Positions 6,855 through 44,488 of a stretch of 64,000 nucleotides of DNA are shown piece after piece; position 1 is the stretch's first letter; every line of letters starts with the position of its first letter. The notes beneath the pieces were generated by a model. It was given only the letters and a program-made list of their open reading frames with translations, made no database searches and was not told where the DNA came from. This DNA comes from Saccostrea cucullata (taxonomy: Eukaryota). A program made the translations under genes and the position numbers. The stretch spans positions 186,001 through 250,000 of the forward strand of contig NW_026930709.1 in the NCBI RefSeq assembly GCF_032062105.1, read 5' to 3'.

Positions 6855-8181
6855 TTAGCTGTTGTACCAGTCCAGGAAAAGTAGTGATAGAGTCAGTAGG
6901 AGGAGGAAAAATAAAATGTAAACACGGAAACCAGCACTGTTCTTCATAGCCTGAAAAAGGATATATGAAAGTTAATCAAAATATATCCTTAGATTTTATT
7001 TGGATTCCAAAATTGCAGTTAAAAAGTGTGATACTAGCCCCGTGTGCCACAAGACTCGCCTCTCTTTATTTTTAATCTCAAGAAAGTTATATTACAGAAA
7101 TAATATCTGTCATTGAACTTGCCAAAATGACCTTGGGTCAAAGTTATTACTGTACATATCTTTAGCTAAACAAGAATCTTTGAAGTACGTGTATCATTTT
7201 CCACACAATAATGTATTAATCCATTTTTACAAGAACTACAAAGAAACAAAATGGAGTTTACTCTCAGTTTTAATTGTGGACCACCTGAAATTTAACTTTA
7301 TACTTGTGTAGATATGATATAGTTTATACTTGTCTGATCTCCTCATTGCCCTCTTTAATGTTTTCTGTGGAACCAACAACCACCTGCTCAATTCTGTCTA
7401 TATCTTTCTCCTGAAAATGCAATTAAGTAAACAAATATGGTTTGCTATTCTCACACACTCTCTTGTTATTTCAATAGTAAACATTTTAATCATTCTGTAT
7501 GGTTTTTAGAGATTTGTTGCCATTCAGTCTATTGATTTTTATTCACTTTTTTAATATCATAATTATGATATACTGAATATAGATCGTTTTCCATTGAGGT
7601 GATTTAAGCAAGAGTAATTTCCCAATATCCACCATATTGTAGTCAACATTCCCAGATCCTTTGTTATTCAAGTTCAATTTGTTATACTAGGTACTGAGGT
7701 AAAGATAACACAGTTTTTCATATGAATATACATTTGTTAAAGCCTCTATTAATTCATAATTTCCAGATTTTAAATATTTTCCCCCATATATTTCTGGTAT
7801 GCATGTTTAAAGTTGGAAATTCACTACTTTGCCCTACAAGATGGCGGCCAAAGGGAATAATTCTAGGCAAAATTTATCATAAGAAAACGATCTAGACTCT
7901 TTTATAATATTGGTATGGTATAAGAGTTAAAGGGAGCTAACCTGTTCTAACACTTTTTCTGTGAAGATTTCTTGGAGTTTGGCAATTTCCATGACTTTAC
8001 CCTCTATTTGACTGTAAAGGAAAATGCATAAAATCTAAAAATCAAATATTCACAGACACAGCAGGAGCATAATCTGACCATTATCAATCCAGTTCAGATC
8101 TAATATTATTTTTTTTTGTCTGACCTAATTTGTATTATTATCTTTATAGTTTTAACTACCGATAATACTAAATTGTAAGTC

Positions 8182-8216
<35 letters not shown>

Positions 8217-9203
8217 CACTGTGGCTAGGCAAAAGTATAAATTGGTTTATTATTGAAAAGGTAAAATCCAAAAGTAGTCCCATGAACAATCATGGATTTT
8301 CTATCTTTGAGAAGATGATTTTTAAAGAATTTTCCTATATATTTCTATGTAAAACTTTGGTCGGCCATTTTGGCCTCGCCCTACCCCCGGGGGTCATGAT
8401 TTGAACAAACTTGAATCTACACTACCTGAGGATGCTTCCATATAAATATGATGAATTATGGCTTTGTCATTCTTGAGAAGAATATTTTTAAAGAATTTTC
8501 CTATATATTTCTATGTAAAACTTTGGTCGGCCATTTTGGCCCCGCCCTACCCCCGGGGGTCATGATTTGAACAAACCTGAATCTACACTACCTGAGGATG
8601 CTTCCATATAAATATGATGAATTATGGCTTTGTCATTCTTGAGAAGAAGATTTTTAAAGAATTTTCCTATATATTTCTATGTAAAACTTTGGTCGGCCAT
8701 TTTGGCCCCGCCCTACCCCCGGGGGTCATGATTTGAACAAACTTGAATCTACACTACCTGAGGATGCTTCCATATAAATATGATGAATTATGGCTTGGTG
8801 ATTCTTGAGAAGAAGATTTTCAAAGAATTTTCCTATATATTTCTATGAAAAACTTTGGTCGGCCATTTTGGCCCCGCCCTACCCCCGGGGGTCATGATTT
8901 GAACAAACTTGAATCTACACTACCTGAGCATGCTTCCATATAAATATGATGAATTATGGCTTAGTCATTCTTAAGAAGAAGATTTCTAAAGAATTTTCCT
9001 ATATATTTCTATGTAAAACTTTGGTCGGCCATTTTGGCCCCGCCCTACCCCCGGGGGTCATGATTTGAACAAACTTGAATCTACACTACCTGAGGATGAT
9101 TACCCATAAGTTTCATCTTTCCTGGCACAGTGGTTCTTGAGAAGAAGATTTTTAAATCATGCCACCAAATTTTCATTAATTGCCAATTATCTCCCCTTGA
9201 ATG

Positions 9204-9242
<39 letters not shown>

Positions 9243-9305
9243 AACCCAAGGATGCTTTGTGGCAACTTTGGTTGAAATTGGCCTAGCGGTTCTTGAGAAG
9301 AAGTC

Positions 9306-9336
<31 letters not shown>

Positions 9337-9357
9337 AGACGGACGCCGGACAAAATG

Positions 9358-9403
<46 letters not shown>

Positions 9404-10450
9404 CCAGTCCAAGCTTTAGTGAAAAGCAGATACAGAGTATCAAGATTAAACTCTAATGGTTTTTACATCAAGGGGAAGTAAATTCAATTTAAGACAGACA
9501 GATTTAAATATGTTAAGCATTACTAACCCAACTTCTTGTGACATACTACTCATCTCTTCAAATAATGCTGCATTTTCTTTCTCAAACTGAAAGATATCAT
9601 GAAAAAGTTGAAAATTATTCCTTGAATTATAATGCAGAAAAAGAGCAGATGCAAGAAGTTAACAAGAGGCCCAGGGGCCACATCGCTCACCTGAGCAAAT
9701 CGGCTAGGAAAAAACACAAATCAGATCAGAACTGAAAAGTTTACTGAAGGGGGTGGGGGGGGGGGCTTGAATTTAATACTACTTTAGAATGCCTTCATAT
9801 TAATACAGCATATGACTTTGCTGTTCTTGATAAAAGGATTTTTTAAAAACATTTTCTTCCTATACTATCACTAATCATTGCTTTGAAGTACTTGAGAAGA
9901 CAATTTTCCTGTAAATTCCTATGTAAAACTTTGATCAGCCATTGTGGCCCCACCCTACCCCCGGGGGTCATGATTTGTACAAACTTGAATTTACACTACG
10001 TGAGGATGCTTCCACATGAGTTTCTTCTTTCCTGGCCCAGTGGTTCTTGAGAAGAAGATTTTTAAAGATTTTCCCTATATACTCCTATGTAAAACTTTGA
10101 TCGGCCATTGTGGCCCCACCTTACCCCAGGGGGTCATGATTTGAACAAATTTGAATCTACACTACCTGAGCATGCTTCCATATAAATATGATGAATTATG
10201 GCTTTGTCATTCTTGAGAAGAAGATTTTTAAAGAATTTTCCTATATATTTCTATGTAAAACTTTGTCGGCCATTTTGGCCCCGCCCTACCCCCTGGGGTA
10301 ATGATTTGAACAAACTTGAATTTACACTACCTGAGGATGTTTCTCCATAAGTTTCATCTTTCCTGGCACAGTGGTTCTTGAGAAGAAGATTTTTAAAATA
10401 TGCCACCAAATTTTCATTTATTCCCAATTATCTCCCCTTGAATGAGGGCT

Positions 10451-10494
<44 letters not shown>

Positions 10495-10503
10495 ACTTTG
10501 TGG

Positions 10504-10534
<31 letters not shown>

Positions 10535-10601
10535 TGAGAAGAAGTCGAAAATGTGAAAAGTTTACAGACAGACGGACAGCTAGACGGACGGACGGATAAC
10601 G

Positions 10602-10646
<45 letters not shown>

Positions 10647-10915
10647 CAATTACATTGTTGCTTTGTCTTCTAAAAAAAAATCACAAGGTTTTTATGTCCA
10701 AGAATTCCCACAGGCTAAATCGCAAAAGATCTATGAAAAAGAGACACACTGCAATCATTTGTCTAAATATTAAGTCTTCACATGACTGGGAACATACTGT
10801 AAAATCACCAATTTTCATGGGTTTAATTTTTGTTGTTTCATAGTACATGTATGAGGAGACCCACAAAGTTTGTTTTATTTCCTTTTATCACGTAATTAAA
10901 TCCCCTTATTTTCCC

Positions 10916-10953
<38 letters not shown>

Positions 10954-11951
10954 CACTAAGGGTAGGAAAAAGTAGAAAATGGCTTTTTATTGTAAAGTTT
11001 AAATCCATAAGTAGTCCCATGACCAATCATGGATTTGCTATTTTTTAAGATAATGATTTTTTAAGAATTTTCCTATATATATCTTTAAAAACTTTGGTCG
11101 GCCATTTTGGCCCCGCCCTACCCCTGGGGGTCATGATTTGAACAAATTTGAATCTACACTACTTGAGCATGCTTCCATATAAATATGATGAATTATGGCT
11201 TTGTCATTCTTGAGAAGATGATGTTTAAAGAATTTTCCTATATATTTCTATGTAAAACTTTGGTCGGCCATTTTGGCCCCGCCCTACCCCCGGGGGTCAT
11301 GATTTGACCAGACTTGAATCTACACTACCTGAGCATGCTTCCATATAAATATGATGAATTATGGCTTTGTCATTCTTGAGAAGAAGATTTTTAAAGAATT
11401 TTCCTATATATTTCTATGTAAAACTTTGGTCGGCCATTTTGGCTCCGCCCTACCCCCGGGGGTCATGATTTGAACAGACTTGAATCTACACTACCTGAGC
11501 ATGCTTCCATATAAATATGATGAATTATGGCTTAGTCATTCTTGAGAAGAAGACTTTTAAAGAATTTTCCTATATATTTCTATGTAAAACTTTGGTCGGC
11601 CATTTTGGCCCCGCCCTACCCCCGGGGGTCATGATTTGAACAAACTTGAATCTACACTACCTGAGCATGCTTCCATATAAATATGATGAATTATGGCTTT
11701 GTCATTCTTGAGAAGAAGATTTTTAAAGAATTTTCCTATATATTTCTATGTAAAACTTTGATCGGCCATTTTGGCCCCGCCCTACCCCCGGGGGTCATGA
11801 TTTGAACAAACTTGAATCTACACTACCTGAGGATGTTTCCCCATAAGTTTCATCTTTCCTGGCACAGTGGTTCTTGAGAAGAAGATTTTTAAAATATGCC
11901 ACCAAATTTTCATTAATTCCCAATTATCTCCCCTTGAATGAGGGCTTGGCC

Positions 11952-11995
<44 letters not shown>

Positions 11996-12017
11996 TTGGC
12001 AAGTTTGGTTGAAATTA

Positions 12018-12048
<31 letters not shown>

Positions 12049-12097
12049 GTGAAAAGTTTACAGACAGACGGACAGACAGACGGACGCCGGACAAAAT

Positions 12098-12144
<47 letters not shown>

Positions 12145-15100: not shown

Positions 15101-17640
15101 TACCCTCTTCACCCTCACTGCTCTCTGCTCACTGTAAAGTTTACAAACCACTGCAAAAAATCAAATGTTCATTTCAAAAATAAAATTTTGAAAATTAAGA
15201 TTCAGTTCTGATTATCTTTATCTGTACTAGTAGACAAGTGTTACATTAATACATTGAGATTTCTTTGATTCAAAATTGTGTTTCAATTTTCTCTCATTTG
15301 TTTTGAGTACTTTATTCTCTTTATTTCTTTACTCTTTATTCTATTTATTATACTTGTTATTTTTTTTTTTTTAGCAAATTCTACTCCTAAAGATTCTTTA
15401 AACTCTGCATCTGCATACCTTTCAAATAATCATCTACAAGTTTGATGACAGCTGCTCTGTGTTCTTTTGTCTGAGGTTGAAGTCGGCCATTTAAGTCTGT
15501 TTGAGAAAATTTAAATTTTGTAATAAACAAATAAAGATATTGCCGAACATAGGACAAATAACCTATCAGATTCATGTTTACTAAACTGGCCTTTGTTTTG
15601 CTTTGCAGTGAAATTGTGGATATTAAGTCTCAACTACGATATCTTGGACACCCAGAATATCTTGAAAAATTTTTATAATGTGCCAATACTGAGGTACCAA
15701 TTGTTTTCTAGTAAGGGTAAAACTTACAAGAAAATGAGGTTTTAGGGTAGCTTTTCTGAAGTAATTTTGTAAAACTTACTTTTAATCAGAGTCAAAGATT
15801 CCTGACACATGTGGATCACCTTCTCTGCCTCTTCATCAATCTTATCACGTTCCGTGTCTGTCATGCTGGATGTTTCTGCACTCAGGTGACTACAAAATGT
15901 GTTGATAAGTTATTTTGTATGAATGAGAAGAAATCAAAAATTTCATATTAATTAAAAGCACTTGTTACACACACGCCCTCACATATTTAAGTTATGAATT
16001 TTATATACATTGCATGTAATGGTAATTACTGCAATCAATTACACTGTACATTTATAAATTGTACATAGGGTGAATTCACCATGCATCGGATACCCTTGTA
16101 CTTCAACAAGTCCTAGTGATATCGCTACCGACGGAAAACTATCAAAATGGAGTTTAACATTTAGTATGTGATTAAAATATAAATTTTGGACACAATTATA
16201 TGCTTTTTATTGAGAAAATATTATAAAAAATCGAGTTTTTAAAAATAACTCAGAATTCACCATGGATCGAACATTGTTTACCATGCATCGGACAGACGGT
16301 ATTTGAATTGGGAAAATATAATACCTTCATGACAGTGCTTTGAATTCCTTGATATGGATAAACTTTCATCTTTTATCTAAGAAATAACCCTCAACTTAAA
16401 TATAATTGACGATATCGTTGCACAAATGTAGAACGATTCAAGAAGCCTCACTTTGCCTTAGTAATTCTTAAAATGCTTGAAATGCGGTAATTCGCGCCTT
16501 TTTTCTCATGTGCTATCATACTGTGGTTTGTAGAAATAAATTGAGTCAGATTTTAGACCTCATATATGGATAACTTGTATTTTGACTGAAAATTTAGAGT
16601 TTTTATTTTCTATTTCCGACAAAAACAGCTGTCAGTAGGGTTCTGTATCAAAATGGTCGTGATTACCTTTACATCGGAAAGTGTCCGATGCATGGTTAAT
16701 TTGTGTCCGATGTACGGAGAAATGAACATACTAGTAAAAACCAGCTTTAAAAAGAATTATACAAATATCGAAGGGAAAATTCTTTAAAATTTATGTAAAG
16801 TTGCCAATCTTTGATAAAATTCACCAAAGTCTGATCTGTTCCGTTGAAGTCGAATTTTAAGAACGATAACTCTAAAAATTGCAAAATCATAAATTTCTGG
16901 TTATTCCCCTTTGATGATGTAAAATATGACGTAACTTCAAGGCCATTATCGGAGTATTTTTATCACAACATGATAATAACAATCAGTATCATTAAAAAAT
17001 TTAAATTTTCATCTTTAAGACAGAATCAAATAAATACACGGAACTCTTAAGTTGAAAGAGAGTTTATTGCCTAAAGTTGTCCGAAGCAAGGTATGTGTCC
17101 GATGCATGGTGAATTCACCCTATTGTATTACAAGTCTAAGTCTTAATAATTACCCTCCAGTGCTAACATAGGCTTTCCTGTGTTCCAGTAAGAAGTCTTT
17201 CAATTTTGTGATACTCTGCACCTAAAATAGTTATACTAGTTATACTACTTACACATAGAAGTATTGTATACAAACATGTTTCAATATGGTGACCCATGGC
17301 ATTACATCAGTGTACATTGTATCTTTTCCATACTCTTTGAATGATTTAAATAATGGGATTTAAAAAGAAGCAGATTGCAATAGAAAAGTATACATTCTGG
17401 GAAAAAACAATACATCCACGTACACATGTAAACAGTAAACATGTTTTAATTAACATTTTAAAATAAATATGATGAAAGTCAACATACTACTTCTTTGCTT
17501 TTCTTTTCAAAGTCGCCTTTGTGCTTTGATGATGGTAAAATATTAGTAAACGTCTGTGATTTTTGTCCATCTCCTGTAAATTTCTTTCTGGTTCGTAAAG
17601 CCTTCACTGTTGCTTTGAAAACATTTGTAATATCTGCCAT
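6855..17640 (-). CDS. STX18: Syntaxin-18, 11 exons: 17488-17640, 17154-17221, 15780-15889, 15419-15496, 15084-15150, 14554-14666, 12397-12482, 9528-9586, 7942-8011, 7330-7410, 6855-6950
   Basis: Phase-consistent GT-AG splicing. Motifs: [18 protein letters not shown]; [15 protein letters not shown]; [14 protein letters not shown]; [18 protein letters not shown]; SNARE helix [23 protein letters not shown]; C-terminal [33 protein letters not shown]. Confidence 0.95.
8182..9400 (+). mobile_element. Helentron-associated non-autonomous element (HINE) with ~5 x 166-bp Cg170-like satellite units
   Basis: One end aacaagaggcccatgggccacatcgctcacctgagc; 166-bp periodic core; (cagacgga/caga)n microsatellite; terminal hairpin gctcacttgagccttcggctcaggtgagctaa; inserted in an A-run with no TSD. 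Confidence 0.85.
9661..10646 (+). mobile_element. HINE with ~3 x 166-bp units
   Basis: Same termini and core as the 8182 copy. Confidence 0.85.
10919..12141 (+). mobile_element. HINE with ~5 x 166-bp units
   Basis: Same termini and core as the 8182 copy. Confidence 0.85.
12800..14202 (+). mobile_element. Second HINE family, 1.4 kb (copy 1)
   Basis: aataaagtgccgcgcc...gatacgcccgtc ... (gacg/gaca)n ... hairpin tacgtcccgtcttaagacgggcgtataa. A near-identical copy lies at 39636-42124. Confidence 0.8.
14350..14593. repeat. ~4.3 x 56-bp tandem repeat duplicating the 3' end and splice donor of STX18 exon 6
   Basis: Unit ttcattggactgattagtgtttgtcagtaattcttaccttgactagactggctctg. Donor GT dinucleotides (minus strand) begin at 14553, 14498, 14442 and 14386. 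Confidence 0.9.
16068..17120. mobile_element. Non-autonomous TIR DNA element (~1.05 kb) in STX18 intron 2
   Basis: Perfect 23-bp TIR gggtgaattcaccatgcatcgga, flanked by TA on both sides; internal repeats of ccatgcatcgga; no ORF. Confidence 0.85.
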
Positions 17641-17877
17641 TTCGATGATCTCTTCTTTTCCAACGTGTACACAATCACAATCACAAGGCAAAATTTAGAA
17701 ATGTTTCGAATGCTCCTAAAAACGAAAGTAGAGTTCCGAGTACAGTTTGTTGTAAGGTCCTGAAAACGTTTAAAGTCACGTCAAAAATTGCTGGGCTCAG
17801 ACAGAACATTTGAACTCTTGATTAAAATGTTGACAGGAAGATTTGACGTTTTGGAAAATGCTAAAAAGACATAAAAT
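17641..17877. promoter_or_regulatory. Probable bidirectional promoter, STX18 / TM2D2
   Basis: Divergent start codons only 237 bp apart. Contains gtcacgtca (CRE/E-box-like) and a caggaag ETS-like core. Confidence 0.65.
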
Positions 17878-19294
17878 ATGGACAAAATGAGAAATTTAAT
17901 TAAAGTCTCATTGGTAATTCTATTCTTTCTCCCGTTTGTGATACACTGTGATGAACAAGGGTGCTACAATGGTACATGCAAGTCGGAATACGTTCCCCAT
18001 GGACCTTTGGTTCACTGTAAATACTTGTGAGTATTTGATTCTAATTCTAATATTTGTCAGATAAAGTCTATATAGAGATACAACTGAAATATAATTTGAA
18101 TTTTCTTAGACCTATGGAATTCCTTAACTGTTCTGAGCCTCTTGATTTGAATGGAAATGATACCAGACAGAAAGAGCTTGGGCATGGATGTTTAAAGGTG
18201 AGCTATTAAAAATAGTTAGTAGATTCTCTATTTCATCTTAATCTAATTAAAATCAGATCCTTTGATCCCTTCATTTAAATAGCTACACAAGGATCTGGCC
18301 CTTGTGTAGCGATCTATGGGAGTGGATCAAAGGATCTGATTTTAATCAGATTGTTTCGTCTTTTGCATAGTAAAAAGAATAAGATACTGTTAATGTACAT
18401 GTTGCCAGTGTTCTCAAATATTGTACCATCTTCCTCATCAACTTGGTCTTTAAATTTTCAAAACAGATACCATCTACAGTATTCTGTTTGCGATTGACAA
18501 ATTATTAATGCTTGTTTAGTATGGAGGTCAGAGACATGAGGATATTGAGTATACAGGAGTGGTGTGTTCAGTTCTACAGGGAATTGATTGTTATGGAAAC
18601 AGAACCTTCATAAAAGAGGGCTTTCCATGCATCAAGTAAGTATTATAAATATTTTTGTGAAACATACAGTGCAGTATTTTCCTTTATATCCTGCACACAT
18701 GTAGGTCACTTGTGCATGAAAGAAAAAAGTAGTATATTATATTTTGCAACTACTATTTTTTACCTTCTGTCATGTACATGTTGCTACCACTACCCTTAAT
18801 ATTATACTAGTATTAAGAATCTTTTCTGTACAGGTTAATCTCAGCGAGATGGGTAGAGACTAAAATTTTGGTCTGACATCTAGTAGACGTCAGAACCAAA
18901 TTTTAGTTCTCTACCCATCTCGCTGAGATTATGTACAGGTGAGCTTGAATATAGACCATTACCTCTAATTTTTTATTTAATTAAGCTACAAATGCAGATG
19001 ATGGTCTCTCTCTCAGTATATGTCAAGTGTTCATTTTGCTGATGTTATAAATAGTATCACAATGTTCCATTGTTTGACAGATATAATGGACACTATTTTG
19101 TGACCACCCTCATCTATTCAGTGCTGCTGGGATTTCTGGGTATGGACCGATTCTGCCTGGGACACACAGGCACAGCGGTGGGTAAACTACTGACCCTGGG
19201 AGGAGTGGGGATCTGGTGGATTGTGGACATAGTCCTCCTGGTCAATGGGATGTTGACCCCCGATGACGGCAGTAACTGGGTCCCTTATTACTGA
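17878..19294 (+). CDS. TM2D2: TM2 domain-containing protein 2, 4 exons: 17878-18026, 18110-18197, 18520-18635, 19081-19294
   Basis: Signal-peptide-like N-terminus; [18 protein letters not shown]; [10 protein letters not shown]; TM2 domain [53 protein letters not shown]. Confidence 0.95.
18240..18353. mobile_element. Palindromic MITE in TM2D2 intron 2
   Basis: aatctaattaaaatcagatcctttgatcc ... ggatcaaaggatctgattttaatcagattg; near-perfect 9-bp TSD tttcatctt/tttcgtctt. Confidence 0.75.
18836..18931. mobile_element. 96-bp palindromic MITE with 9-bp TSD (Mutator-like TSD length) in TM2D2 intron 3
   Basis: taatctcagcgagatgggtagag ... ctctacccatctcgctgagatta; exact TSD tgtacaggt at 18827-18835 and 18932-18940. 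Confidence 0.9.
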
Positions 19295-22200
19295 GTTGTC
19301 AATTAATTATAAAGCATGATCTCATTTGTACCAGCACATTGTAAATATTCATATAAATAATGCAGTATATTTTTTATTTAAGTTTTCATTAATGCATGAT
19401 GTTTTTATGCCCACGTAGGCCTAATTGAAGATTCAGGGGTATATAGTTTTTGCTCTCTCCATCTGTCTGTCTGTTTGTCTGTTAATCTGTTTGTCTGTTA
19501 ACCTGTTTGTCGGTAGAAACTTTAACCATGACCATAACTTTTGAATGGGTGGGTCTATGGCTTTTAATTTCAAAGGTGTATTCCTTGTGATGAAACCCTT
19601 TTTGAGTACCACCATTTGACCTCTTGATCTTGAATTTGGAGTTTGACCAACTTTTGAACAGTTAGTACTTCATAGGTTTATTGCTTATGACAAGACATTC
19701 CTTTGGATATCAATAATTACAGCCTTCACTACTGAATTAAATATCCCCTTAGATTCCAAAAAATCCCCTGTTGTCCCCCTGTCAGTCCCTGACATTTTCC
19801 TGTCTCTCCCTGACTTTCTCCTATGATCCCCTGTCGTTGTCCCTGCTCTCCCTGTCCAGTCCCTGTCGTCCCCTGTCGTTGTCCCTGCCCTCCCTGTCTA
19901 CTCCCTGTCGTCCCCTGACATTCTCTGATCTCCCTGTCCAGTCCCTGTCGTCCCCTGTCGTTGTCCCTGCCTTCCCTGTCTACTCCCTGTCGTCCCCTGA
20001 CATTTATTTTGGCCAAGAAAAGGAGTTTAAAAAATATTTTTGTTGCATTTAAGAGTGAAAAATAATATAGTCTTGAAAAATTTAAGTTTTTTTTTTTTTG
20101 AAAATATAGACTTAGTAAAAAGTTAACACATTTTTAAATGCCTTAACAAAATCCCCTGTAATTTAGTTTCTATTACTTGTATCAATGTGATTATTTTAGT
20201 GTGGTAGCATTTCGGGGGAGAAGGACAGAGAATTGCATCATTATAAAGAAGAAATAAATTAGCAATTTATTTCATCTTGTGATGTTAGACGGCTTATACA
20301 TTGTACTTTATGGACCTTTTATATATATTTATAACTTTTTCATTTTTTATTTGATCTACTTTGAAACATCTTTGAGCGTAATAACTGTCTTTGTAAAAGA
20401 ACTAGATTTAAACATTTGAGAATACATTATCAAATCCATGCATGGGATATTTTTGTTTTACCAAAGAATTAAAAAATTAATTGAAAGGAATGATATATGA
20501 ATGTATTAATAAAATAAAAGTCTATTTAATAAATAAAAATTATTAAATAAACTAAAGATATATTTTATTCATTTATTTTCTTATGTGAATAAATCTACAA
20601 CAATGAATAAATAAATAGATAAATAAATAAATAAATAATGAGAATTATATAAATTTATTCATTTATTTTTTATTTTTTTAATTTATCGCTCATTTATATC
20701 CCCCAGAATTTGATTTATTAGTTTTATTTTATTTATTTGCTAAAATATCCTACAAAGTATTTTATTAGCATATTTAAACGACTTTTTATTACTTAAAGTC
20801 CATGATGGATATCAAAATAATCGTCTCATTATGCACAATATTAATCCGTCAATTAGATTTTTGATACTTTGTTTTGATTAAAAAATCGGTTTTCAAAACC
20901 CTAACACGGTTCTGAAACAACATCAAAGCCACTGATGTTTACCAGTAATTAACTCGGGGTACACAGTCATGACACCTATTATTTTTTTTTCACTGACCAC
21001 TATACCTTGTTTATATTGTGACAGGACGAGCGTGTGTAGTTTGCAGCGGTTTGAAATAACATTTTCTCTTTGTATGAGAACTTAATTTTTTTTTTTCAAT
21101 CAAAACAAAATAAAAGTATTAAAGAAACTATTGACGGGTAAAGATTGTGCATGATGAGACGATTATTTTGATATCCATCATGGAAGTAAAATAATTAAAA
21201 GCAGATTTAATATGCTTCAAGAATACTTTGACACACATTTTTTGCGTAAATAGTTTTACATAAAATAAGCCAAACAAAATTCCATTTTCGGGTATTTGAT
21301 TATTTAATTTGTATGTATTGTCAATTTTAAAAATAAAAAAGATTGTTTTTATCATAAATAAATACATGCAGTTAATATTTTTTTTTCTTTTTTGTTTACT
21401 AACTATTCAAAATCAATTATTGTTTTGATTTTAAAAAATTAATTATTCTAAAATGCACCAATGCTCCCTGCTATCTCTTTATTTTTTCTTTCTTTTCTTT
21501 TTTTTTTATATTATTATTATTTTTTTTTTTGAACAAATGGTAAAAAGTCAAACCAGTACTTAACGAATAAAACAGATTACAGCGAAATAAATTCATATTA
21601 AATAAATAAAGTAAAGTAAATGAATAATAAAAAAAATATTAATAAAATATTAATCTATTTAATTTTGAAATTGAAAATAGAACAAATTAATTAATCATTT
21701 TTATCTGCAAGAAATTGTGTTTCTTTAGTTTTATTTTATATAAACACTTGCATCCGTTGATGTTCTACAAAGTATTTTATTAGCGTATTAAAACGACTTT
21801 TTATTACTTAAAGTCCATGATGGATATCAAAATAATCGTCTCATTATGCACAATATTAATCCGTCAATTAGATTTTTGATACTTTGTTTTGATTAAAAAA
21901 TCGGTTTTCAAAACCAGGTTAACACATTTCTAAACAACATCAAAGCCATTGATGTATACCAGTAATTAACTCGGGGTACACAGCCATGACACCTATTATC
22001 TTTTTCACTGACCGTTATACCTTGTTTATATTGTGGCAGGACGACCGTGTGTAGTTTGTAGCGGTTTGATATAACATTTTCTCTTTGTATGAAAACTCAA
22101 TTTTTTTTTTCAATCAAAACAAAATAAAAGTATCAGAGAAGCTATTGACGGGTAAAGATTGTGCATAATGAGACGATTATTTTGATATCCATCATGGAAG

Positions 22201-23958
22201 TAAAATAATTAAAAGCAGATTTAATATGCTTCAAAAATACTTTGACACATATTTTTGCGTAAATAGTTTTACATAAAATAAGCCAAAAGAAACCATTTTC
22301 AGGTATTTGATTATTTAGTTTGCTTGTATCGTTAATTATAAAGATAAAAACATTGTTTTTATCATGATTAAGTACATGCAGTTAATAAGTTTATTTGTTT
22401 TTATTTACTAACTACTTAAAATCAATAATTGTATTGATTTTAAAAAAATCAATTATTCCAAAATGCACCAATAACCCCTGCTGTTTGTCTCTTTTTTCTT
22501 TCTTTTTTTTTTTTATATTATTTTTTTTTAACAAATGGTACAAAGTCAAACCAGTGCTTAACGAATAAACAGATTTCAGCTAAATAAATTCATAGTAAAT
22601 AGATAAAATAAAATAAATGAATAATAAAAAAAATATTAATAAAATATTAATCTATTCATTTTTGAAATTGAAAATACAACAAATTAATGAATCATTTTTA
22701 TCTGCGAGAAATTGTGTTTCTTTAGTTTTATTTTATATAAACACTTGCATCCGTAGATGTTCTACAAAGTATTTTATAAGCGTAGTAAAGCCACTTTTTA
22801 TTATTTTAAATACATGATGGATATCAAAATAATCGTCTCATTATGCACAATATTAATCTGTCAATTTGATTTTTGATACTTTGTTTAGATTGAAAAAATC
22901 GGTTTTCAAAACCCTAACACGGTTCTGAAACAACATCAAAGCCATTATTGTTTACCAGTAATTAACTCGGGGTACACAGTCATGACACCTATTGTCTTTC
23001 TCGCTGACCGCTATACCTTGTTTATGTTGTGTTCAGAGTGACCGTGTACAGTTTGCAACTGTTTGAAATAACATTTTCTCTTTGTATGAGAACTTAATTT
23101 TTTTTTCAATCAAAACAAAATAAAAGTATCAAAGAAGCTATTGACGGCTAAGGATTGTGCATAATGAGACGATTATTTTGATATCCATCATGGAAGTAAA
23201 ATAATTAAAAGCAGATTTAATATGCTTCAAAAATACTTTGACACATATTTTTGCGTAAATAGTTTTATATAAAATTAGCCCCCCCAAAAAATCCCATTTC
23301 GGTTGTTTGTTATTTAATTTGTTTGTCTTGTCAATTTTAAAAATAAAAAAGATTGTTTTTATAATAAATAAATACATGCAGTTAATAAGTTTATTTATTT
23401 ATTTTGGTTTTTTTTTTTTATTTACTAACTATTTAAAATCGATTATTGTATTTATTTTAAAAACTTAATTATCCTAAAATGCACCAATACCCCCTGCTGT
23501 CTCTCTCTTTTTTTTTCTTTTAAAAAGTCAAACAAGTATTTAACGAATAAAACAGATTGCAGCGAAATAAATTCATAGTAAATTAAAAAAAATAAAATAC
23601 ATGAAAAATAAAAAAAATATTAATTAAATATCAATCTATTTCTTTATTTTTGAAATTGAAAATGGTACAAATTAATGAATCATTCAATCTGCAAGAAATT
23701 GTGTTTCTTTAGTTTTACTTTAAAATTATATAAACAATTGCATCCGTAGATGTGCTACAAAGTATTTTATTAGCGTATTAAAACGACATTTTATTATTTT
23801 CAGTACATGATGGATATCAAAATAATCAGCTTATTATGCACAATATTAATCTGTCAATTTGATTTTTGATACATTGATTAGATTGAAAATATCAGTTTTC
23901 AAAACCCTAACACGGTTCTGAAACAACATCAAAGCCATTGATGTTTACAAGTAATTAA

Positions 23959-26900
23959 GGGAGCTCTAAACACTGACAATCAGGACAATTTAGGACTTAA
24001 TAGAAATATATTTTATAACTGAGTTCATAAATGATTTTTTAAAAATATTTTCATACATGGATGCCACCATTTTTAATAAAATAAAAATGATAGAAATAAG
24101 GGAATATGTAGGAAAGTGAAATTTTTTTTATTTTTTACACAAATAATTTTCTCCAAAATTTCTTGAAGTCTTATATCATTGTTACATAAACCAACATACA
24201 AAAAAAATTAAATACATAGAATGACCCCAACAGTTCAGAAATATTTTGACATTTTTTACAAAAGATTACAAAAAATGTAAGGATAATCACAGATATTTTT
24301 TGTATATATGGAATTTTTGAATTTTTCTACAAATCTAAATAAAGGTTTTGCTATTTGGTGCACAAAAATTCATATCTTACATGGTGGAGCCAGGTTTATA
24401 AGAGAGATAAAAAATAAAATAACATATAACTTTACAATTATAAAAACAAAGGGAAGTAACTCTTTACAACTGACTTGACAAATAATTGGACACCGAGTTG
24501 ATTATTTTCTTACACTTTGTAACTCTTGCTTTACCATTTACAATTTCTTGAAACAAGTTTTTTACTCCATCTTCACCATTTCTTGTGTGTGCTAGTTTAA
24601 TATAATTCAAATTCAAACCAGATTTTGCAATTTTATTTGCCATAAATTCTGTTATCACTTTTCCATGGACTAAGACGTCAAGAGATTTCAAATTGTCATT
24701 CTTTACTGAAGAAAACTTTAGATGCTGTAAAACATAATTGTACATGACACTTTGACTCAACAGAGTGTTGAAAGGAATGTTATGAAAGTTCACTAAATTT
24801 TGTAGGTCCATAGCATCAGTTAGAGCACAATGAGAAACCCCTGTTGACTGGATTCCTGCATCTCTCATAAGAGACTCCTGAGAAAAACTGCCAGTTTGTG
24901 TCTTTAAATCAGAATTTTTAAAAAACCTCCAAAGTGTCGATAAAGCCGGCAATGCATGTATTCATCACAATATTTTGTGACGTAATGTTTTGAATAAATA
25001 AAGGAAAGTCAAACCGTAATCCATTGTGGCTTACAAGAATGTTAGAATTCGAGTCCGATAACCACTCTGAAAACTTTTGGAGTGCTGATTTCAAGTCTGT
25101 TGTTGCAAGTTTTTGATCCCTGTAGTAAAGTTCATGGTTTTTCATATGGAGACCAGTCACACAAGTTGCATTTGCAGATATTGTACCATTGGGTTTTATG
25201 TATTTTTGAAATATATCCTGTCCTCTTGCAGCTCCTATTTCCAATATTTCTGCTGATGAACCTGTAAGACAAATCTGAGACAATGTATCTCTAGAAAAAA
25301 AATGTATATATCTATATATCAATGTCTCATGGAAATACATGTGTATATATATCTATATATAAAACTTTACCTAAACCTGTTGTTTCTAGGTCAAAGTAAA
25401 CAAATGTGCTATCAGTATTTCTTAGTGGTATTCTCTCTGGTTCAACAGTGGCACTTGGAATGGAATTGATGTCCTGCTCCTCATCCATTTTCTCTAGTCC
25501 AACCGACGTTTCATATGTTTTTCCTTCACGCACTTCTTTACAACCCTGATCTTGACTTGAGGATTTCCTAATTTGGCATCTCCTTTTCTTGTACTCTGCA
25601 CTACTCTGTCTTATCTTCTGTAACTTTCTTTTTCTGTCCATCTTTTCAACCGCCTTTTCTGTATAGGCTCCAGGAGACATATTCAGTTCATCATTGACCT
25701 GTAAATATACATGTAAACATAATCATTACTCCTTCACATGAAATGAGAATACATGTATATGATTATTTTATAATGCATAATTTTTTTGATTATCAAATAT
25801 ACTTACTTCTTGTATATAAGACTTTCCAATGTTTTTCTGTGCAACAGCTGCAGCGATTCTGAAACTTGTACTTTCTGATCCTGACAGAAAGAGGCTCTTT
25901 GGATTTTTTGATGCAACGATGTGATTAAAACTTTCGCATGCTTGTGTTGATCCAAGATCAGATAGTTTATCAGCTTGCTGTGCATACGTCTGAATAATGG
26001 CTTCCAAGTCCTTTTTCAACTCTGGACATGTTAGATACCTGCTGTATGGAAGATTCTGTGGAAGGTAACTTGCTGGATTCCGCTTATATTTACACCATGA
26101 AGGGCATGCCAGATGGTCTCCATACATATGAGGAATAATACACAACAAGGATTTTTTCAACTCTTCAGGTTTCTTCTGGTTCTGGGCAAGAACATAAGAA
26201 AAGCATTTCTTTAGATGTGTCATAGTTTTTCCTCTAAGTTGTCGATACTTTTTGAATCTTTGCAAATCATACAGTTTGTTTGAAAATGTTTTCTTCAGGT
26301 GATTTCTGTCACTGAATTTTGTAATACTTTGCTCACACTCTTTTCTTGCACGTGAGATTGTCGTACTGTCATCATCCATTACTAATTCATGTGGATGGAT
26401 ATGATCTTTTTCTAAGTCTTTCAACATCCCCACTATCATGTCAGGCTCCATAGCTTTGGCCGAGCCATCCCAATTCTTCCTGGAAATTAAAATATAAAAA
26501 TAAGCATGTAAAAAAAAAATAAATATAGACACTGTATTAATTTGCAGTGACCTTCAATAAATATTGATTTTTTTTTTACTTTACATATTCATTTTTATAT
26601 ATTATTATACATTTGATACTTATCAACTTCTTACCTGCAGTCATGGTCAATGGGCTGAATGCCTTTTCTTTTTGCATTTTCACAAAGTCTGCATTTTCTG
26701 CATCTATAATCATACCGCACTATTTTCCCAGATTTATCACCTATAAGTGAACTGTGACCTGTGGTTAAAAAAAAATAAAAAGAGATATATTCATAATCAC
26801 CTCATAAATAAGTTTTATTTACAAAAATATTTTTTTTTCTCAAAGTTTCTTCTTGAGTGCACTGCATACCTGAATAGCTGTTATATTTCCTTCCACTAGA

Positions 26901-28723
26901 TCTTGTTTGCCATCCAGCATCAGCCGCAACTCTTATTTCAACTTTCCTAAAAAATATATACATGTATATAAAAAACTACACTGTCATAGGAGAAATAAGA
27001 AAGACAAAAGGATGTTGAGATCATGATGCTTGGTATATTTTTTTCATAAAATTTAATTCCATAAAATTTACCCATCATTCATTTTTATTTCTTCATCAAG
27101 AGCCTCAGTGCAACTTTTTTTGGCAACAGATTCAATAGCCTTTCCTGCTTCTCTGTCTCTTTTCTTGACTGTTCCAGCCGCTACACCAGGGATATTCAAT
27201 GATGCAAATAACATTTGTAAATTAGAAAACCCTATTCCACTGCTGGTAATACCTACAAGACACAGAATGAATTGAAAATAAAATATTATTCACTATCAAA
27301 TATGCTGCATTATTAAATCATATTGCAAATTTTTCTGAAATTACCTGCACCAAGCTTAGTGTTCACATCCCAAATGTTTTTTTCATGCCGCTTTCCAGTG
27401 GGGATGTTTGAAATAAAACTGCATATAGTACACTACAAAATTAATGAAATATTTCATATGAGTCATGGCGATTACTTACAAAATTAGGTTCTTTTATTAT
27501 AATTGTTTATGTTGATGATGATGTATTTGACATTTACCTTTATGTACAAAATACTTCCAAGGCCATAATGCCTCTCTTGAAAACAATCACACAGATGTAA
27601 TACAGTCCCACATTTCTTGCATCCTTTCTGTAGCTGTGCTGCTAGCACACCAAGCTCAACCACTCGACGACCCTTTGTATGATACATGTATTTGTTTCAA
27701 AGTAAAATTGATATAAAAAATATCAATACGTAAAAGAAAATGGAATTGATGAAAACTAAAGTTCATTTTTGCATTCTACATGTTTTGTGCACATTCTGTG
27801 TTAAACTTGTAGCTTGCAGAAAGCCTTGAAAAAAGTAACAGAGACCCTTTCAAAATAACTGTTGTACTATTCTTTTGCAGGAAATTTCTTTAGTGAAATG
27901 TGACCTAGAAGCAATTGTTAAATATACATAATTTAATATCTATCAACAAAAACTTTTCCATACGTTATTAACTTGATTAATTTGTCCTGCAAAAGAGTAG
28001 TAACACAGTTATTGTCTAAAGAACTAATATGTAAGGTTTTCATTTAGAAATACCTCATGCCAGTCAAGTAAATTCTTTGAAACATCTGGGTGCAAAGTGT
28101 CTTCCTCATTAGTTTCGTCGGGCGGATCGTCGTTTCTATCGTTGCCTCTGTAATCTTCATCGGATGTATCTAATTCATCCTCGTCCTCTTCATCATATTC
28201 CGACCAACCCTCGTCAATGCTGGTACTCATAATATTTTTACCATGATTTGGGGGTTTTGAATAATCATGATCCATCCTTAACAAAATTTCGATAAATATA
28301 ATTACAACATTGAACAAAATATTCTATTACTTCTAAAGACATGATGTTTTTTTTCTCAAGTTTCCGAAAGCCGTTTTTAGAATTAAAATGACTATCGTGC
28401 AGTTACCTGGAGTCCTCTAATGTTTTTCTTTCAATTGCTTCAGATGTAGGAATTGGAGCAGACTTTATTTTGGGGCGAAATCTTCCGCTTTTATAGCGTT
28501 TTCTCAAACATGTCAAATTAGTGGACATGCTGTCTGTCATGTTGCCACTCTTTTCCTACCTTTTTATCCTAGAGAGCGGAAAGGGGAGTAATTCATTTTA
28601 TATTTTTAGAGTATTGACGGAATTTTTTTTCCCGAATAAATACGAAGGGCGGATCACTCCAAGCTCCAAAAAATACCGAAGCTACCGGAAGACTCTTTAG
28701 GCAGTGCAGTGTTTAGAGCGTCC
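23959..28723 (-). mobile_element. Kolobok-type DNA transposon (4765 bp)
   Basis: TTAA TSD at 23955-23958 and 28724-28727. 17-bp TIRs GGGAGCTCTAAACACTG / CAGTGTTTAGAGCGTCC (15/17 match) give GG...CC ends. Removing it restores the unit sequence gtaaTTAActcgggg seen intact in the other five units. Confidence 0.88.
24464..28540 (-). CDS. DDE transposase (Kolobok/Mutator-like domain) fused to DEDDh exonuclease, ~919 aa, 10 exons: 28407-28540, 28054-28276, 27538-27672, 27345-27432, 27072-27252, 26870-26946, 26635-26758, 25807-26479, 25371-25698, 24464-25261; one 1-nt frameshift at ~24920
   Basis: All 9 introns are GT-AG with consistent phases. Transposase motifs: WHEGRRVVELG, CKKC..CTIC, AADAGWQTRSSGRKYNSYSGH (D), CRLC..HDCRKNWDGSAKAMEPD, LVMDDDSTT (D), DRNH, HMYGDHLACPSWC, GSTQACESFN (E). 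Exonuclease motifs: FDLETTGL, SHNGLRFD, FIDTL, HCALTD. Confidence 0.85.
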
Positions 28724-31700
28724 TTAACTCGGGGTTCACGGTAATGACACCTATTATCTTTTTCACTGACCGCTATACCTTGTTTATGTTGTGACAGGAC
28801 GACCGTGTATAGTTTGCAGCTGTTTGAAATAACATTTTCTCTTTGTATGAGAACTGATTTTTTCAATCAAAACAAAATAAAAGTATCAAAAAAAACTATT
28901 GAGGGGTAAAGATTGTGCATAATGAGACGTTTATTTTGATATCCATCATGGAAGAAAAATAATTAAAAGTAGTTTAAATATGCTTCAAAAATACTTTGAT
29001 ACATATTCATTGTTAATCAGTTTACATAGAATATGCGAAACAAATCCCATTTTCGGGTATATGATTATTTAGTTTGCTTGTATCGTCAATTTAAAAAATA
29101 AAAACATTGTTTTTATAATGATTAAATACATGCAGTTAATAAGTTTATTTTTTTTTACTAATCAATTATTGTATTGATTTAAAAAAAAAAACTAAAATAT
29201 TCCAAAGTGCGCAGTGCCCCTACTTTTTTTTTTCTTTTCTTTTTTTTTATTTTTACAAAAGGTAGAAAGTCACTCCATTGTTAAATGAATAAAACATGAA
29301 TAAAATAAAACTCTACAGAAATACAATTTCTTGCGGATATAAATAATTGACTAATTTGTTTTTTTTTTTTAATTTCAAATATAAATAAATAAATTGTTTT
29401 TATTTATATTTATTTTATTATTTTTTTTTTATTTTTTTTTATTTATTTACTATGTATTTATTTCGCTGTAATCTGCTTTATTCATTAAATACTGGTTTGA
29501 CTTTGTACCATTTGTAAGAAACAAAGTCAGCAGGGGGTATTGGTGCATCTTGGAATGTTTTAGTGTTTAAAACCAAATCATTAATTGATTTTAAATACTT
29601 AGTAAATAAAAAAAAAAACTTATTAACTGCATGTACTTAATCATGATAAAAACAATGTTTTTATCTTTAAAATTGACGATACAAGCAAACTAAATAATCA
29701 AATACCCGAAAATGGAATTTTTTTGGCTTATTTTATGTAAAACTATTTACGCAAAAATATGTGTCAAAGTATTTTTGAAGCATATTAAATCTGCTTTTAA
29801 TTATTTTACTTCCATGATGGATATCAAAATAATCGTCTCATTATGCACAATCTTTACACGTCAATATCTTCTTTGATACTTTTATTTTGTTTTGATTGAA
29901 AAAAAAATTGAGTTTTCATACAAAGAGAAAATGTTATTTCAAACCGCTGCAAACTACACACGGTCGTCCTGCCACAATATAAACAAGGTATAACGGTCAG
30001 TGAAAAAGATAATAGGTGTCATGGCTGTGTACCCCGAGTTAATTACTGGTAAACATCAATGGCTTTGATGTTGTTTAGAAATGTGTTAGGGTTTTGAAAA
30101 CCGATTTTTTAATCAAAACAAAGTATCAAAAATCTAATTGACGGATTAATATTGTGCATAATGAGACGATTATTTTGATATCTATCATGTATTTAAAATG
30201 ATAAAAAGTCGTTTTAATACGCTAATAAAATACTTTGTAGAACATCTACGGATGCAAGTGTTTATATAAAATAAAACTAAAGAAACACAATTTCTTGCAG
30301 ATAAAAATGATTCATTAATTTGTTGTATTTTCAATTTCAAAAATAAATAGATTAATATTTTATTAATATTTTTTTTTATTATTCATTTACTTTACTTTAT
30401 TTATTTACTATGAATTTATTTCGCTGTAATCTGTTTTATTCGTTAAGTACTGGTTTGACTTTGTACCATTTGTTCAAAAAAAAAAAAAAAAAAAGAAATA
30501 ATATAATAAAAAAAAGAAAAAAAAAGAAAGAAAAAAGAGAGAGACAGCAGGGGGTATTGGTGCATTTTAGAATAATTAATTTTTTAAAATCAATACAATA
30601 ATTGATTTTGAATAGTTAGTAAACAAAAAGAAAATAAATAAACTTATTAACTGCATGTATTTAATTATGATAAAAACAATCTTTTTTTATTTTTAAAATT
30701 GAAAATACAAACAAATTAAATAATCAAATACCCGAAAATGGAATTTTGTTTGGCTTATTTTATGTAAAACTATTTACGCAAAAATGTGTTTCAAAGTATT
30801 CTTGAAGCATATTAAATCTGCTTTTAATTATTTTACTTCCATGATGGATATCAAAATAATCGTCTCATTATGCACAATCTTTACCCGTCAATAGCTTATT
30901 TGATACTTTTATTTTGTTTTGATTGAAAAAAAATGAGTTCTCATACAAAGAGAAAATGTTATTTCAAACCACTGCAAACTACACACGGTTGTCCTGTCAC
31001 AATATAAACAAGGTATAGCGGTCAGTGAAAAAAAAAATAGGTGTCATGGCTGTGTACCCCGAGTTAATTACTGGTAAACATCAGTGGCTTTGATGTTGTT
31101 TCAGAACCGTGTTAGGGTTTTGAAAACCGATTTTTTAATCAAAACAAAGTATCAAAAATCTAATTGACGGATTAATATTGTGCATAATGAGACGATTATT
31201 TTGATATCCATCATGGACTTTAAGTAATAAAAAGTCGTTTAAATATGCTAATAAAATACTTTATAGCATATTTTAGCAAATAAATAAAATAAAACTAATA
31301 AATCAAATTTTGGGGGATATAAATGAGCGATAAATTAAAAAAATAAAAAATAAATGAATAAATTTATATAATTCTCATTATTTATTTATTTATTTATCTA
31401 TTTATTCATTCATTCTTAATTCAGTCGAGTTGTAGATTTATTCACATAAGAAAATAAATGAATAAAATATATCTTTAGTTTATTTAATAATTTTTATTTA
31501 TTAAATAGACTTTTATTTTATTAATACATTCATATATCATTCCTTTCAATTAATTTTTTAATTCTTTGGTAAAACAAAAATATCCCATGCATGGATTTGA
31601 TAATGTATTCTCAAATGTTTAAATCTAGTTCTTTTACAAAGACAGTTATTACGCTCAAAGATGTTTCAAAGTAGATCAAATAAAAAATGAAAAAGTTATA

Positions 31701-34395
31701 AATATATATAAAAGGTCCATAAAGTACAATGTATAAGCCGTCTAGCATCACAAGATGAAATAAATTGCTAATTTATTGCTTCTTTATAATGATGCAATTC
31801 TCTGTCCTTCTCCCCCGAAATGCTACCACACTAAAATAATCACATTGATACAAGTAATAGAAACTAAATTACAGGGGATTTTGTTAAGGCATTTAAAAAT
31901 GTGTTAACTTTTTACTAAGTCTATATTTTCAAAAAAAAAAAAAAAACTTAAAGTTTTCAAGACTATATTATTTTTCACTCTTAAATGCAACAAAAATATT
32001 TTTTAAACTCCTTTTCTTGGCCAAAATAAATGTCAGGGGACGACAGGGAGTAGACAGGGAAGGCAGGGACAACGACAGGGGACGACAGGGACTGGACAGG
32101 GAGATCAGAGAATGTCAGGGGACGACAGGGAGTAGACAGGGAGGGCAGGGACAACGACAGGGGACGACAGGGACTGGACAGGGAGAGCAGGGACAACGAC
32201 AGGGGATCATAGGAGAAAGTCAGGGAGAGACAGGAAAATGTCAGGGACTGACAGGGGGACAACAGGGGATTTTTTGGAATCTAAGGGGATATTTAATTCA
32301 GTAGTGCTTTTGACCTTGAGCTGCATTTGAGAAAGTTCAACCCTAGGCATAAACTGCCATTCAGGGCATCAGTGTTTCACAAAAACAACTTTTTTATTTT
32401 TGCATTTATGAAATCATGGAGTCAAATTGGAGAAAAACTAATTGCTCAATGTAACTATTCTGAAGCTTGTATTTGATTCAGTGTAACTATTCTGAAGCTT
32501 GTATTTGATGTACATAATTACCAGTATATATATTTATTGAAGGTTTACAAAACCTAATGTGTCATATATTCCAGTTTAGAGCTCAATGGTTGTTCTTTAT
32601 GTTGAGCGTATTGATGTTGACTTTGGTGATGTATCAAATAAACATACCTGATGCTGTTGAACAGAGTGAATGTTCAAAACACTAGCACATATTTTGTTAG
32701 AGGAATAAGGAATTCTGATAAGCACTTCACCTTGCATTGTATATTCATTTTGTTTAGCAGACCTCTGTATATCATGTTGATGTTTTGAGCAAGTGGTAGC
32801 AAGTAATCTCAAACATATTTATGTACATGCTGTCTTGCAGCTTTGGGGATTTTTAAGTACATGTAATTACATATGTAAGCATTAATGTCCATAGAAAAAA
32901 GTAATTTGAATTACTCAGCTTCAAAAACTTGCATTTTGGGTAGAAAAAAGCATCTCTTTCCGAACATATGTTGCAGTGATATTGCTGGAAAGCTTACAGA
33001 TGTCCTTTTATTTAAATGTGGCAATAATAGCTAAATATGGAAATATTCTGAAATTAAAAAAATTTAATGTACTTCACGAATTATGGTATTCTGTACATGT
33101 ACATACTGTAAATTCATTTCAAATTTGAATTCATTAAGGAAACTAAAATCTGAATTACACCCGGGTAATTTCAAATAGTTTATTTGATTTGTTGTCTTCT
33201 GTTATTTACATAATATTTTCTAGTTGTTTACAAGCACTGTACCAAAAATACAAATGAATGTAAAAAGCATATGTATAATAAACTTAACCAAAATTGTTAT
33301 ATCTCTCTTCTCAACAGTTTTATGCATAAGCTCAATGAATTTATTATATCTTTTTTTTTCAACATTTTGTGCTAAACAAAAAAAAATATGATTTTACAAT
33401 AACTTAAAACAATTTGTACGAAAATACAATTGTTAACCATTCATGAATTGGTACATGTATGACTTAACAACCAAAATTGGACAGTTACAAGGTTTGTTTG
33501 CACATGATTTATAACAAAAAAAGGTGTTTAAAAAACCTGACTACAATCCATAATAGACAAGTCCTGTATATGTATTATTGCACTTTGTGTGTGTGGAGAG
33601 TCACTTTACAACCTTGTGACCTCGAAGCCTTCCCTGTGATCATCCAAAAAAATAGTGCCAGTTTTTCTCTTCAACATTCGTGCCAACATAAAGGAGAGTA
33701 AACAATTTATTTTATATTAATGTGCTCTTCTGCAATATGGTCATTTGATTTCAATTTTTTAAATAATTTAACAAATAAATAAATTCTCAAAAGTACATGT
33801 ATGTAAAAGAAAAAATCCAACTTTTGAATAGATTTAAATATTTCTTGAAACTGATTCTTGGATAAAGAACAGTTCTGAAAAAAAATTGTTAGTAATGAAA
33901 TGGTGGCCTTTAAAGACAGATATGTAGAAAACATCAATTGCAAAATGTAGAGGCAATATCAAAGCTGAACACAAAAGCTTTATCATCTCTAAACTTTATA
34001 ACATGAAGTGTTTTCCAGTGGACATGTTCAAAAGAGGCTGGTTCAAACCACAATTTCTCCCATAACCTTGAAAGTCCCAACAGTCAAACTAAAGGGTACA
34101 AAAACTCCTTTATGAAAAGTGGAAGACCACCTGACCATTTATTGGAATGCACCTCACTTTCAATAAGTCGGGGCAAGACTGCTTTTAATATCAGCACTAA
34201 TAATAAAAAATGACTATTAAATCAACCATAGACAATAAATACAGTTGCTGCAAATTAAATGTATACACCATACTTATACCACTTATAATGTACAAAAAAA
34301 AAGCATTTGTTCTTTTTCCCACACCCCTTCCCTGCATCAACTGTCACATGCTTGTAGGTTGATCATAAATAGATGGTTTCTAGCTTTGTACATGG

Positions 34396-44488
<10,093 letters not shown>

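Follow-up and report, generated by a model that had tools for sequence, protein, structure and literature searches.

On contig NW_026930709.1 of the oyster Saccostrea cucullata (assembly GCF_032062105.1), a KolobokD transposon lies inside a foldback element with CACTA...TAGTG ends, hereafter the carrier, which itself lies inside an older Helentron-like repeat downstream of a TM2-domain gene. The window analysed is the whole stretch of 64,000 nucleotides from contig positions 186,001 to 250,000, and all coordinates are counted from its first letter. The ends, the target duplications, the modular arms, the nesting and the identity of the one enclosed gene are observed directly, and we regard the structure as a genuine, young, three-layer nested transposon. 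As its probable history we propose that a gene-less, multi-copy CACTA foldback element was moved by an enzyme supplied in trans, landed in the Helentron-like repeat and received one independent KolobokD jump. The outline of the carrier is as follows.

19,727-32,306, no strand: whole foldback element with CACTA...TAGTG ends, 12,580 bp, or 7,811 bp without the Kolobok
19,724-19,726, + strand: left 3-bp target site duplication, CTT
32,307-32,309, + strand: right 3-bp target site duplication, CTT

A first-pass annotation of this DNA had reported CACTA...TAGTG termini and a CTT duplication, and both were found at 19,727 and 32,306. The left end at 19,727 begins CACTACTGAATT and the right end at 32,306 is its exact complement; the duplication is 3 bp, and lengths of 2, 4 or 5 bp do not fit, although at this single locus the chance of such a match is 1 in 64. 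Alignment of the arms (19,727-22,736 against 32,306-29,300) gave 93.5% identity over 3,056 columns, with 103 mismatches and 23 gaps. The annotation had described the multi-kilobase arms as almost identical, which holds for the outer 875 bp, where 3 substitutions and 2 indels were counted (~99% identity), but not further in, where identity drops to 87-99% across the following 1.7 kb and to 74-80% in the innermost 400 bp. The window is without any N. With the Kolobok removed, the longest ATG open reading frame (ORF) in the 7,811-bp carrier is 79 amino acids, and the carrier is thus without a gene, as had been claimed.

The tandem organization of the arms had been overlooked. From outside to inside, each arm consists of subterminal repeats rich in GC (~280 bp), an AT-rich unique stretch of ~600 bp and tandem units of ~1.0 kb; the outer module (~880 bp) and the units make up the entire carrier, with no distinct middle domain.

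19,727-20,004, + strand: left terminus and GC-rich subterminal repeats, with CCCTG 20 times in 19,766-19,999 and an 82-bp duplication
20,005-20,605, + strand: remaining non-repetitive outer module of the left arm, with the first AATAAA signals at 20,253 and 20,508-20,606
20,606-23,954, + strand: left array, units L1, L2, L3 and the first part of L4, spaced at 1,017, 996 and 993 bp; borders approximate
28,724-29,293, + strand: rest of unit L4 after the right TTAA (TTAA included), in the orientation of the left array
29,294-31,420, - strand: right array, a partial unit, R2 and R1; borders approximate
31,421-32,306, - strand: right outer module, subterminal repeats and terminus

At either end CCCTG occurs 20 times within 234 bp, and its density outside is ~0.5 per kb (25 on the + strand in 51 kb). 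A common anchor is found on the + strand at 20,949, 21,966, 22,962 and 23,955/28,724 and on the - strand at 30,032 and 31,057. Their number is unequal, about four on the left and about two plus a fragment on the right, and the strand switch between the arrays is off-centre, at ~29,293/29,294. Every unit is itself an imperfect inverted repeat, with arms of 130-250 bp around a ~200-bp loop, and folding of the unit hairpin as DNA gave z = -13 against 20 shuffles. Mirror partners are the most alike (R1/L1 96.9%, R2/L2 94.9%; the other 13 of 15 unit pairs 86.9-91.0%), which suggests that the units diverged first and that inverted duplication or conversion then gave the arms their mirror symmetry. 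A chimeric origin of R2, with its head from unit 2 and its tail from unit 4, was also considered; just 2 diagnostic sites are in common and this is not claimed.

A palindrome of this size could in principle be an assembly artefact, created by a fold-back chimera of long reads. The ~99% identity of the outer arms would fit such an origin, and the homopolymer frameshift described below suggests an error-prone consensus. However, the arms differ at 103 sites and by 23 gaps, diverge along an inward gradient and have unequal unit numbers; moreover, the flanks are not mirrored, a 3-bp duplication is present, and independent runs give the same terminus together with a probable empty allele. An artefact is therefore highly improbable and the palindrome assumed at first pass survives this objection, although the unit count could still be mis-assembled.

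The sole gene within the carrier belongs, as had been proposed, to a separately bounded TTAA element.

23,955-23,958, + strand: left TTAA target duplication of the Kolobok
23,959-28,723, - strand: KolobokD copy, 4,765 bp, with GG...CC ends and a 17-bp imperfect terminal inverted repeat (TIR)
24,464-27,687, - strand: Kolobok gene, encoding a DDE transposase, a DEDDh exonuclease and a PML_C-like part; eight traced exons

The right TTAA duplication lies at 28,724-28,727, and 15 of the 17 bases of the TIR are inverted (2 mismatches). The annotation did not recognize that the Kolobok stands within the left array and not between the arms: it splits unit L4, and joining the two parts of L4 restores a normal unit with 87-89% likeness to the other five. 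TTAA sites are frequent in the carrier (130, or 16.6 per kb). The gene has seven GT-AG introns and a 654-aa open frame followed by a stop, with Pfam matches to Mutator, RNase_T (above cut-off) and PML_C and additional support from tblastn. Along the traced frame lie the motifs ADAGW (148), CxxC...HxC (185), DDDS (242), DRNH (264) and CESF (388), and the frame thus holds the DDE triad, the DxxH and the CCHC finger after the first D that are features of KolobokD. A finger pattern located after the second D and before the E of the transposase gave no match, though H and C residues are present there. The exonuclease is interrupted at ~24,922, where a T run carries a frameshift of one base; the motifs FDLET and HNG...D stand before the shift and motif III (H.A..D) in the next frame past it. 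The shift may reflect an erroneous consensus. Further upstream in the gene, an acidic exon at ~28,050-28,275 lies outside the eight traced exons.

By the description of Kojima and Bao 2022 (PMC9587614), the passenger is assigned to KolobokD. Common to both are the TTAA duplication, RR...YY ends, the CCHC finger, DxxH, the fused DEDDh exonuclease and a mollusc host, and against that description no difference in kind was found; the window copy is frameshifted in the exonuclease and nested in another element. Other assignments were ruled out: Transib has a 5-bp duplication, piggyBac shares the TTAA duplication but has other ends, and KolobokP has direct terminal repeats and a His-Me nuclease.

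The first-pass annotation went further and saw carrier and Kolobok as a co-mobilising composite. In this case a giant CACTA-type foldback family in Saccostrea would serve as a vehicle: either the 12.6-kb carrier and its Kolobok have moved as a unit repeatedly, and the composite multiplies, or KolobokD favours the hairpin loop of the 1-kb unit and homes to it. Passive co-movement is mechanically possible, given two intact sets of ends and outer arms with just 3 substitutions between them in 875 bp. There are also precedents for foldback composites, FB-NOF reportedly being one. Another is Ssk-FB4 (PMC8277862). The proteins related to the window Kolobok nevertheless speak against repeated co-movement. 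The best match to its gene, the S. cucullata protein P0001 (LOC134229741), shows 100% identity, stops at the same frameshift and is most likely the window locus itself; five further S. cucullata proteins, ~98-99% identical, come one each from five other contigs. Residues private to the window copy are found in none of the other annotated copies (0/5 at column 348, 0/3 at column 286, 0/3 at column 758), and at columns 634 and 715 there are changes common to 3/3 covering copies that are absent from the window copy and from the S. echinata outgroup. The annotated copies are therefore not daughters of the window Kolobok. This comparison, which covers the proteins of annotated copies, lowers the odds of a travelling composite. 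In addition, the equivalent TTAA is unoccupied in five of the six full units, L4 being the exception, and the cargo is off-centre, within an array and frameshifted. A composite that multiplies as a unit thus finds no support here and we consider it unlikely, as we do homing of KolobokD to the unit loop. All the data are compatible with one passive move of the composite, and with either order of carrier landing and Kolobok jump. Near-length homologues numbered 26 proteins, none above 74% identity.

Evidence that the carrier exists elsewhere came from the contigs of four of 24 listed public runs (X1, X2, X4 and X13), which were taken from 20 that contain the sequence and compared with 17,400-21,600 at 82% likeness. 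Relative to the single-copy median, summed contig depth was 122-214x (X1) and 80-184x (X2) over four outer-arm bins and 754x (X1) and 910x (X2) over the unit loop; these ratios are not true copy numbers and were used only as a sign of a multi-copy family. Of 14 flank bins, 12 in X1 and 10 in X2 entered the medians, two repeat peaks being dropped, plus two near-empty bins in X2. The carrier is a dispersed multi-copy family in these two other samples. Contigs matching the terminus start at 19,725 (X1 record 3), 19,727 (X2 record 20) and 19,728 (X13 record 8) with 84-86% identity; X1 record 3 (1,662 nt, 84%) has single-copy depth, and both it and X2 record 20 continue for 0.3-1.4 kb into other flanks. 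We read these contigs as diverged carrier copies at other loci. Neither the exact carrier terminus, in metagenome and viral contig collections, nor the exact unit motif, in metagenome contigs, gave a match; these collections are not oyster genomes and are silent on copy number.

Two features of the depth profile are noted separately. In X1 and X2, depth over the subterminal repeats (19,797-20,078) exceeded that of the remaining outer arm several-fold; other families, one of them possibly an autonomous helper, may share the terminus, or short repeats may attract multi-mapping. The unit loop (20,925-21,065) was 4-11x deeper than the outer arm in the same two runs, as against 3 units per arm here, and arrays may be longer in other copies, or the hairpin unit may also occur outside the carrier.

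Contigs of run X4 are near-identical to the window, and as record 24 is a spliced contig of the TM2 gene, X4 is RNA. Record 25 of this run (1,021 nt) shows 1 difference in 210 over 19,517-19,726 and then continues with 811 nt of non-element sequence. It departs at the base predicted for an empty site, and the insertion is therefore probably young or polymorphic, in a transcribed stretch. No contig of X4 covers 20,361-21,347, a gap from which nothing is concluded. An allele without the carrier, which the annotation had suggested looking for in other individuals, very probably exists. A second, paralogous empty site was sought within the window, with 3 weak matches, none crossing the junction.

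We propose that a transposase of CMC/CACTA type, encoded elsewhere in the genome, cuts and pastes the carrier through its ends; this enzyme would bind the CCCTG subterminal repeats. A recent landing would have placed it in the older Helentron-like repeat downstream of the TM2 gene. KolobokD would have inserted once, by its own enzyme, at the TTAA of one tandem unit, and would since be a passenger, moved passively whenever the carrier moves; such movement was not seen. Unit numbers of the arms may have diverged through unequal exchange, as in Galileo and Tetris. Several points weigh against this history. No transposase that could serve as helper was detected. P0001 may belong to an identical sister copy, and in that event a multiplying composite would gain in likelihood. 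Three private amino-acid changes are a small sample, the other Kolobok copies were compared as proteins only, and the carrier family was seen as contigs, with no second full carrier. Among 24 of 1,207 contig ends listed there was no loose end at the unit TTAA. Finally, that the 811 nt past 19,726 in X4 correspond to 32,310 onward is a strong inference.

The surroundings of the insertion are as follows.

19,081-19,294, + strand: last exon and stop (19,292-19,294) of the TM2-domain host gene (Pfam TM2, E=4e-16; spliced X4 RNA contig)
19,403-19,723, + strand: older Helentron-like (HINE) repeat, left half, with a GTCT/GTTT microsatellite at 19,462-19,511
32,310-32,390, + strand: Helentron-like host repeat, right half with the 3' end; weak match to a similar element
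34,396-34,398, - strand: convergent Arp1 (alpha-centractin) gene, stop codon; distance to the carrier 2.1 kb

The carrier begins 433 bp past the TM2 stop, between convergent genes, in agreement with the ~430 bp of the earlier description. The TM2-domain gene, identified here by its domain, we take to be TM2D2 rather than TM2D1 or TM2D3. That the insertion site is itself an older repeat had gone unnoticed. The left half of this host repeat has very high summed depth in all four runs, and in X1 and X2 contigs from the same locus extend into it; the repeat is therefore older than the insertion. Its 3' end shows weak similarity (78% over 36 nt, E=0.005) to 40,232-40,267, where a similar element ends. 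The oyster Cg_HINE consists of a 5' subterminal inverted repeat (subTIR), a microsatellite, a 3' subTIR and a palindrome (PMC7492417). In common with it, the host repeat carries a tetranucleotide microsatellite close to its 5' end, and its 3' end weakly resembles that of another element in the window; it differs in being degenerate and without a clear central array, and its subTIR ends are imperfect and matched weakly. Further Helentron/HINE-like elements were also observed at 8,159-12,100, 34,950-35,900 and 40,232-41,360, with internal 166-bp or 161-bp tandem arrays and GACC/ACAG microsatellites. These arrays presumably resemble the oyster Cg170 satellite.

The insertion probably lies within the 3' untranslated region (UTR) of the TM2 gene. 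Between the TM2 stop and the insertion neither AATAAA nor ATTAAA occurs, and the next poly(A) signal is at 32,637 on the empty allele versus 20,253 on the filled allele, where the first + strand AATAAA stands 526 bp into the left arm and five more follow by 20,606. The annotation had expected read-through from the flanking genes to give kilobases of double-stranded RNA hairpin; taken further, such a hairpin would yield small RNAs and be the main consequence of the insertion. In favour of this, the site seems transcribed (X4 record 25), the TM2 transcript meets no signal before the carrier, and every unit folds strongly. However, the six AATAAA at 20,253-20,606 stand ahead of the first unit, L1, pairing of the arms needs a transcript of at least 10 kb through an AT-rich array and an antisense gene, and the transcripts that enter the arms from both genes are of the same sense and not complementary. 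The poly(A) signals in the outer left arm therefore make a shortened TM2 3' UTR likely, and a 12-kb hairpin as the principal outcome is unlikely.

With respect to classification, CACTA...TAGTG termini, a 3-bp duplication and subterminal short repeats are CACTA/EnSpm features, and long inverted arms with an outer domain, tandem repeats of variable number and several dispersed copies are those of foldback elements. Judged on these sequence features, the carrier is a non-autonomous CACTA/CMC-ended element of foldback architecture. Dense subterminal repeats are typical of En/Spm and would fit a helper of that lineage. The combination of CACTA with a 3-bp duplication is likewise given as the EnSpm/CACTA signature (PMC4938662; PMC12730594). 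Another possibility, compatible with the history proposed above but the less probable choice, is a helper from a CMC lineage other than EnSpm proper, e.g. Chapaev-3. The sole two curated CMC families of a bivalve library are labelled CMC-Chapaev-3 and start CACTG and CACCG (PMC10294476, supplement), and CA..TG ends with duplications of 2-5 bp are common to CMCT lineages (PMC12730594). The term giant MITE (miniature inverted-repeat transposable element), used at first pass, had to be abandoned in favour of a foldback element with modular tandem arms, as the carrier measures 7,811 bp and the MITE criterion is usually under 600 bp (PMC3573991).

Foldback architecture is known mostly from Mutator elements, with exceptions such as Galileo (PMC4079207). 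The carrier shares it with Tetris of Drosophila virilis (PMC4079207), the 2-TIR copies of Galileo (PMC3573991) and FB. Its arms, however, are 3.0 kb long, compared with up to 1,735 bp in Tetris (PMC4079207) and 1,264 bp in Galileo (PMC3573991); its unit is ~1,000 bp and itself a hairpin, compared with ~210-220 bp in Tetris and Galileo; and it combines CACTA ends and a 3-bp duplication with the lack of a distinct middle domain, whereas Tetris, Galileo and FB have duplications of 7-10 bp (P or Mutator type). With pvCACTA1 it has in common the CACTA terminus, the 3-bp duplication, the lack of coding capacity and the lack of a named helper, but TIRs of non-autonomous CACTA elements are usually 10-54 bp and those of pvCACTA1 145-158 bp (PMC4938662), while here whole 3-kb arms are mirrored. 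Pack-TIRs and Ssk-FB4 (PMC8277862) likewise enclose foreign coding DNA in a TIR element; in the carrier the enclosed DNA is a whole transposon with its own duplication, a nested insertion and no captured host fragment, and there is no multi-copy evidence for it, in contrast to Pack-TIRs and FB composites. The open literature searched, with Repbase, Dfam and subscription journals outside this search, yielded no element that combines CACTA ends with 3-kb foldback arms and 1-kb hairpin units, and the available parts of PMC6431247 and PMC6947457 held nothing specific. A search of paper supplements for the carrier termini gave no match beyond two chance 10-mers, a weak negative as it included 15 of 33 files of PMC10294476, with long lines covered in part. 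Every part of the carrier has a described counterpart, and we regard the architecture as unusual and the mechanism as ordinary.

In an oyster, the locus provides a clean case of a foldback element that joins CACTA/CMC ends to arms of 3 kb and hairpin units of 1 kb, of a size beyond short-read assemblies and MITE finders. Automated annotation would link the Pfam 'Mutator' transposase to the long arms and so misclassify both elements. The insertion probably constitutes a 12.6-kb presence/absence polymorphism in a likely 3' UTR, and a shift in poly(A) site there would be easy to test; a multi-copy family of such palindromes is also a plausible source of inversions. A nested Kolobok is ordinary unless the composite recurs, in which case one superfamily would spread on the ends of another.

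A number of minor features were noted elsewhere in the window. Upstream of the TM2 gene, in an intron-like stretch, lies a ~1.05-kb element (16,068-17,120) with a 23-bp TIR and TA on either side. Two short hairpin repeats in TM2 introns, at ~18,250-18,353 and ~18,830-18,940, are both depth peaks, and the second is missing from the X1 same-locus contig (joint 18,839-19,007). An ORF at 17,482-17,694 (- strand), head to head with the TM2 gene at a distance of ~170 bp and covered by an X4 RNA contig, has a weak Syntaxin-18 N-terminal match (E=1e-4, below cut-off). Further away, 46,195-46,969 (+ strand) holds a DDE_Tnp_4 (Harbinger-type) transposase domain over two frames, 53,124-54,347 (+ strand) a 408-aa ORF with NHL repeats, and 2,882-3,226 (+ strand) an exon with a RbsD/FucU match.

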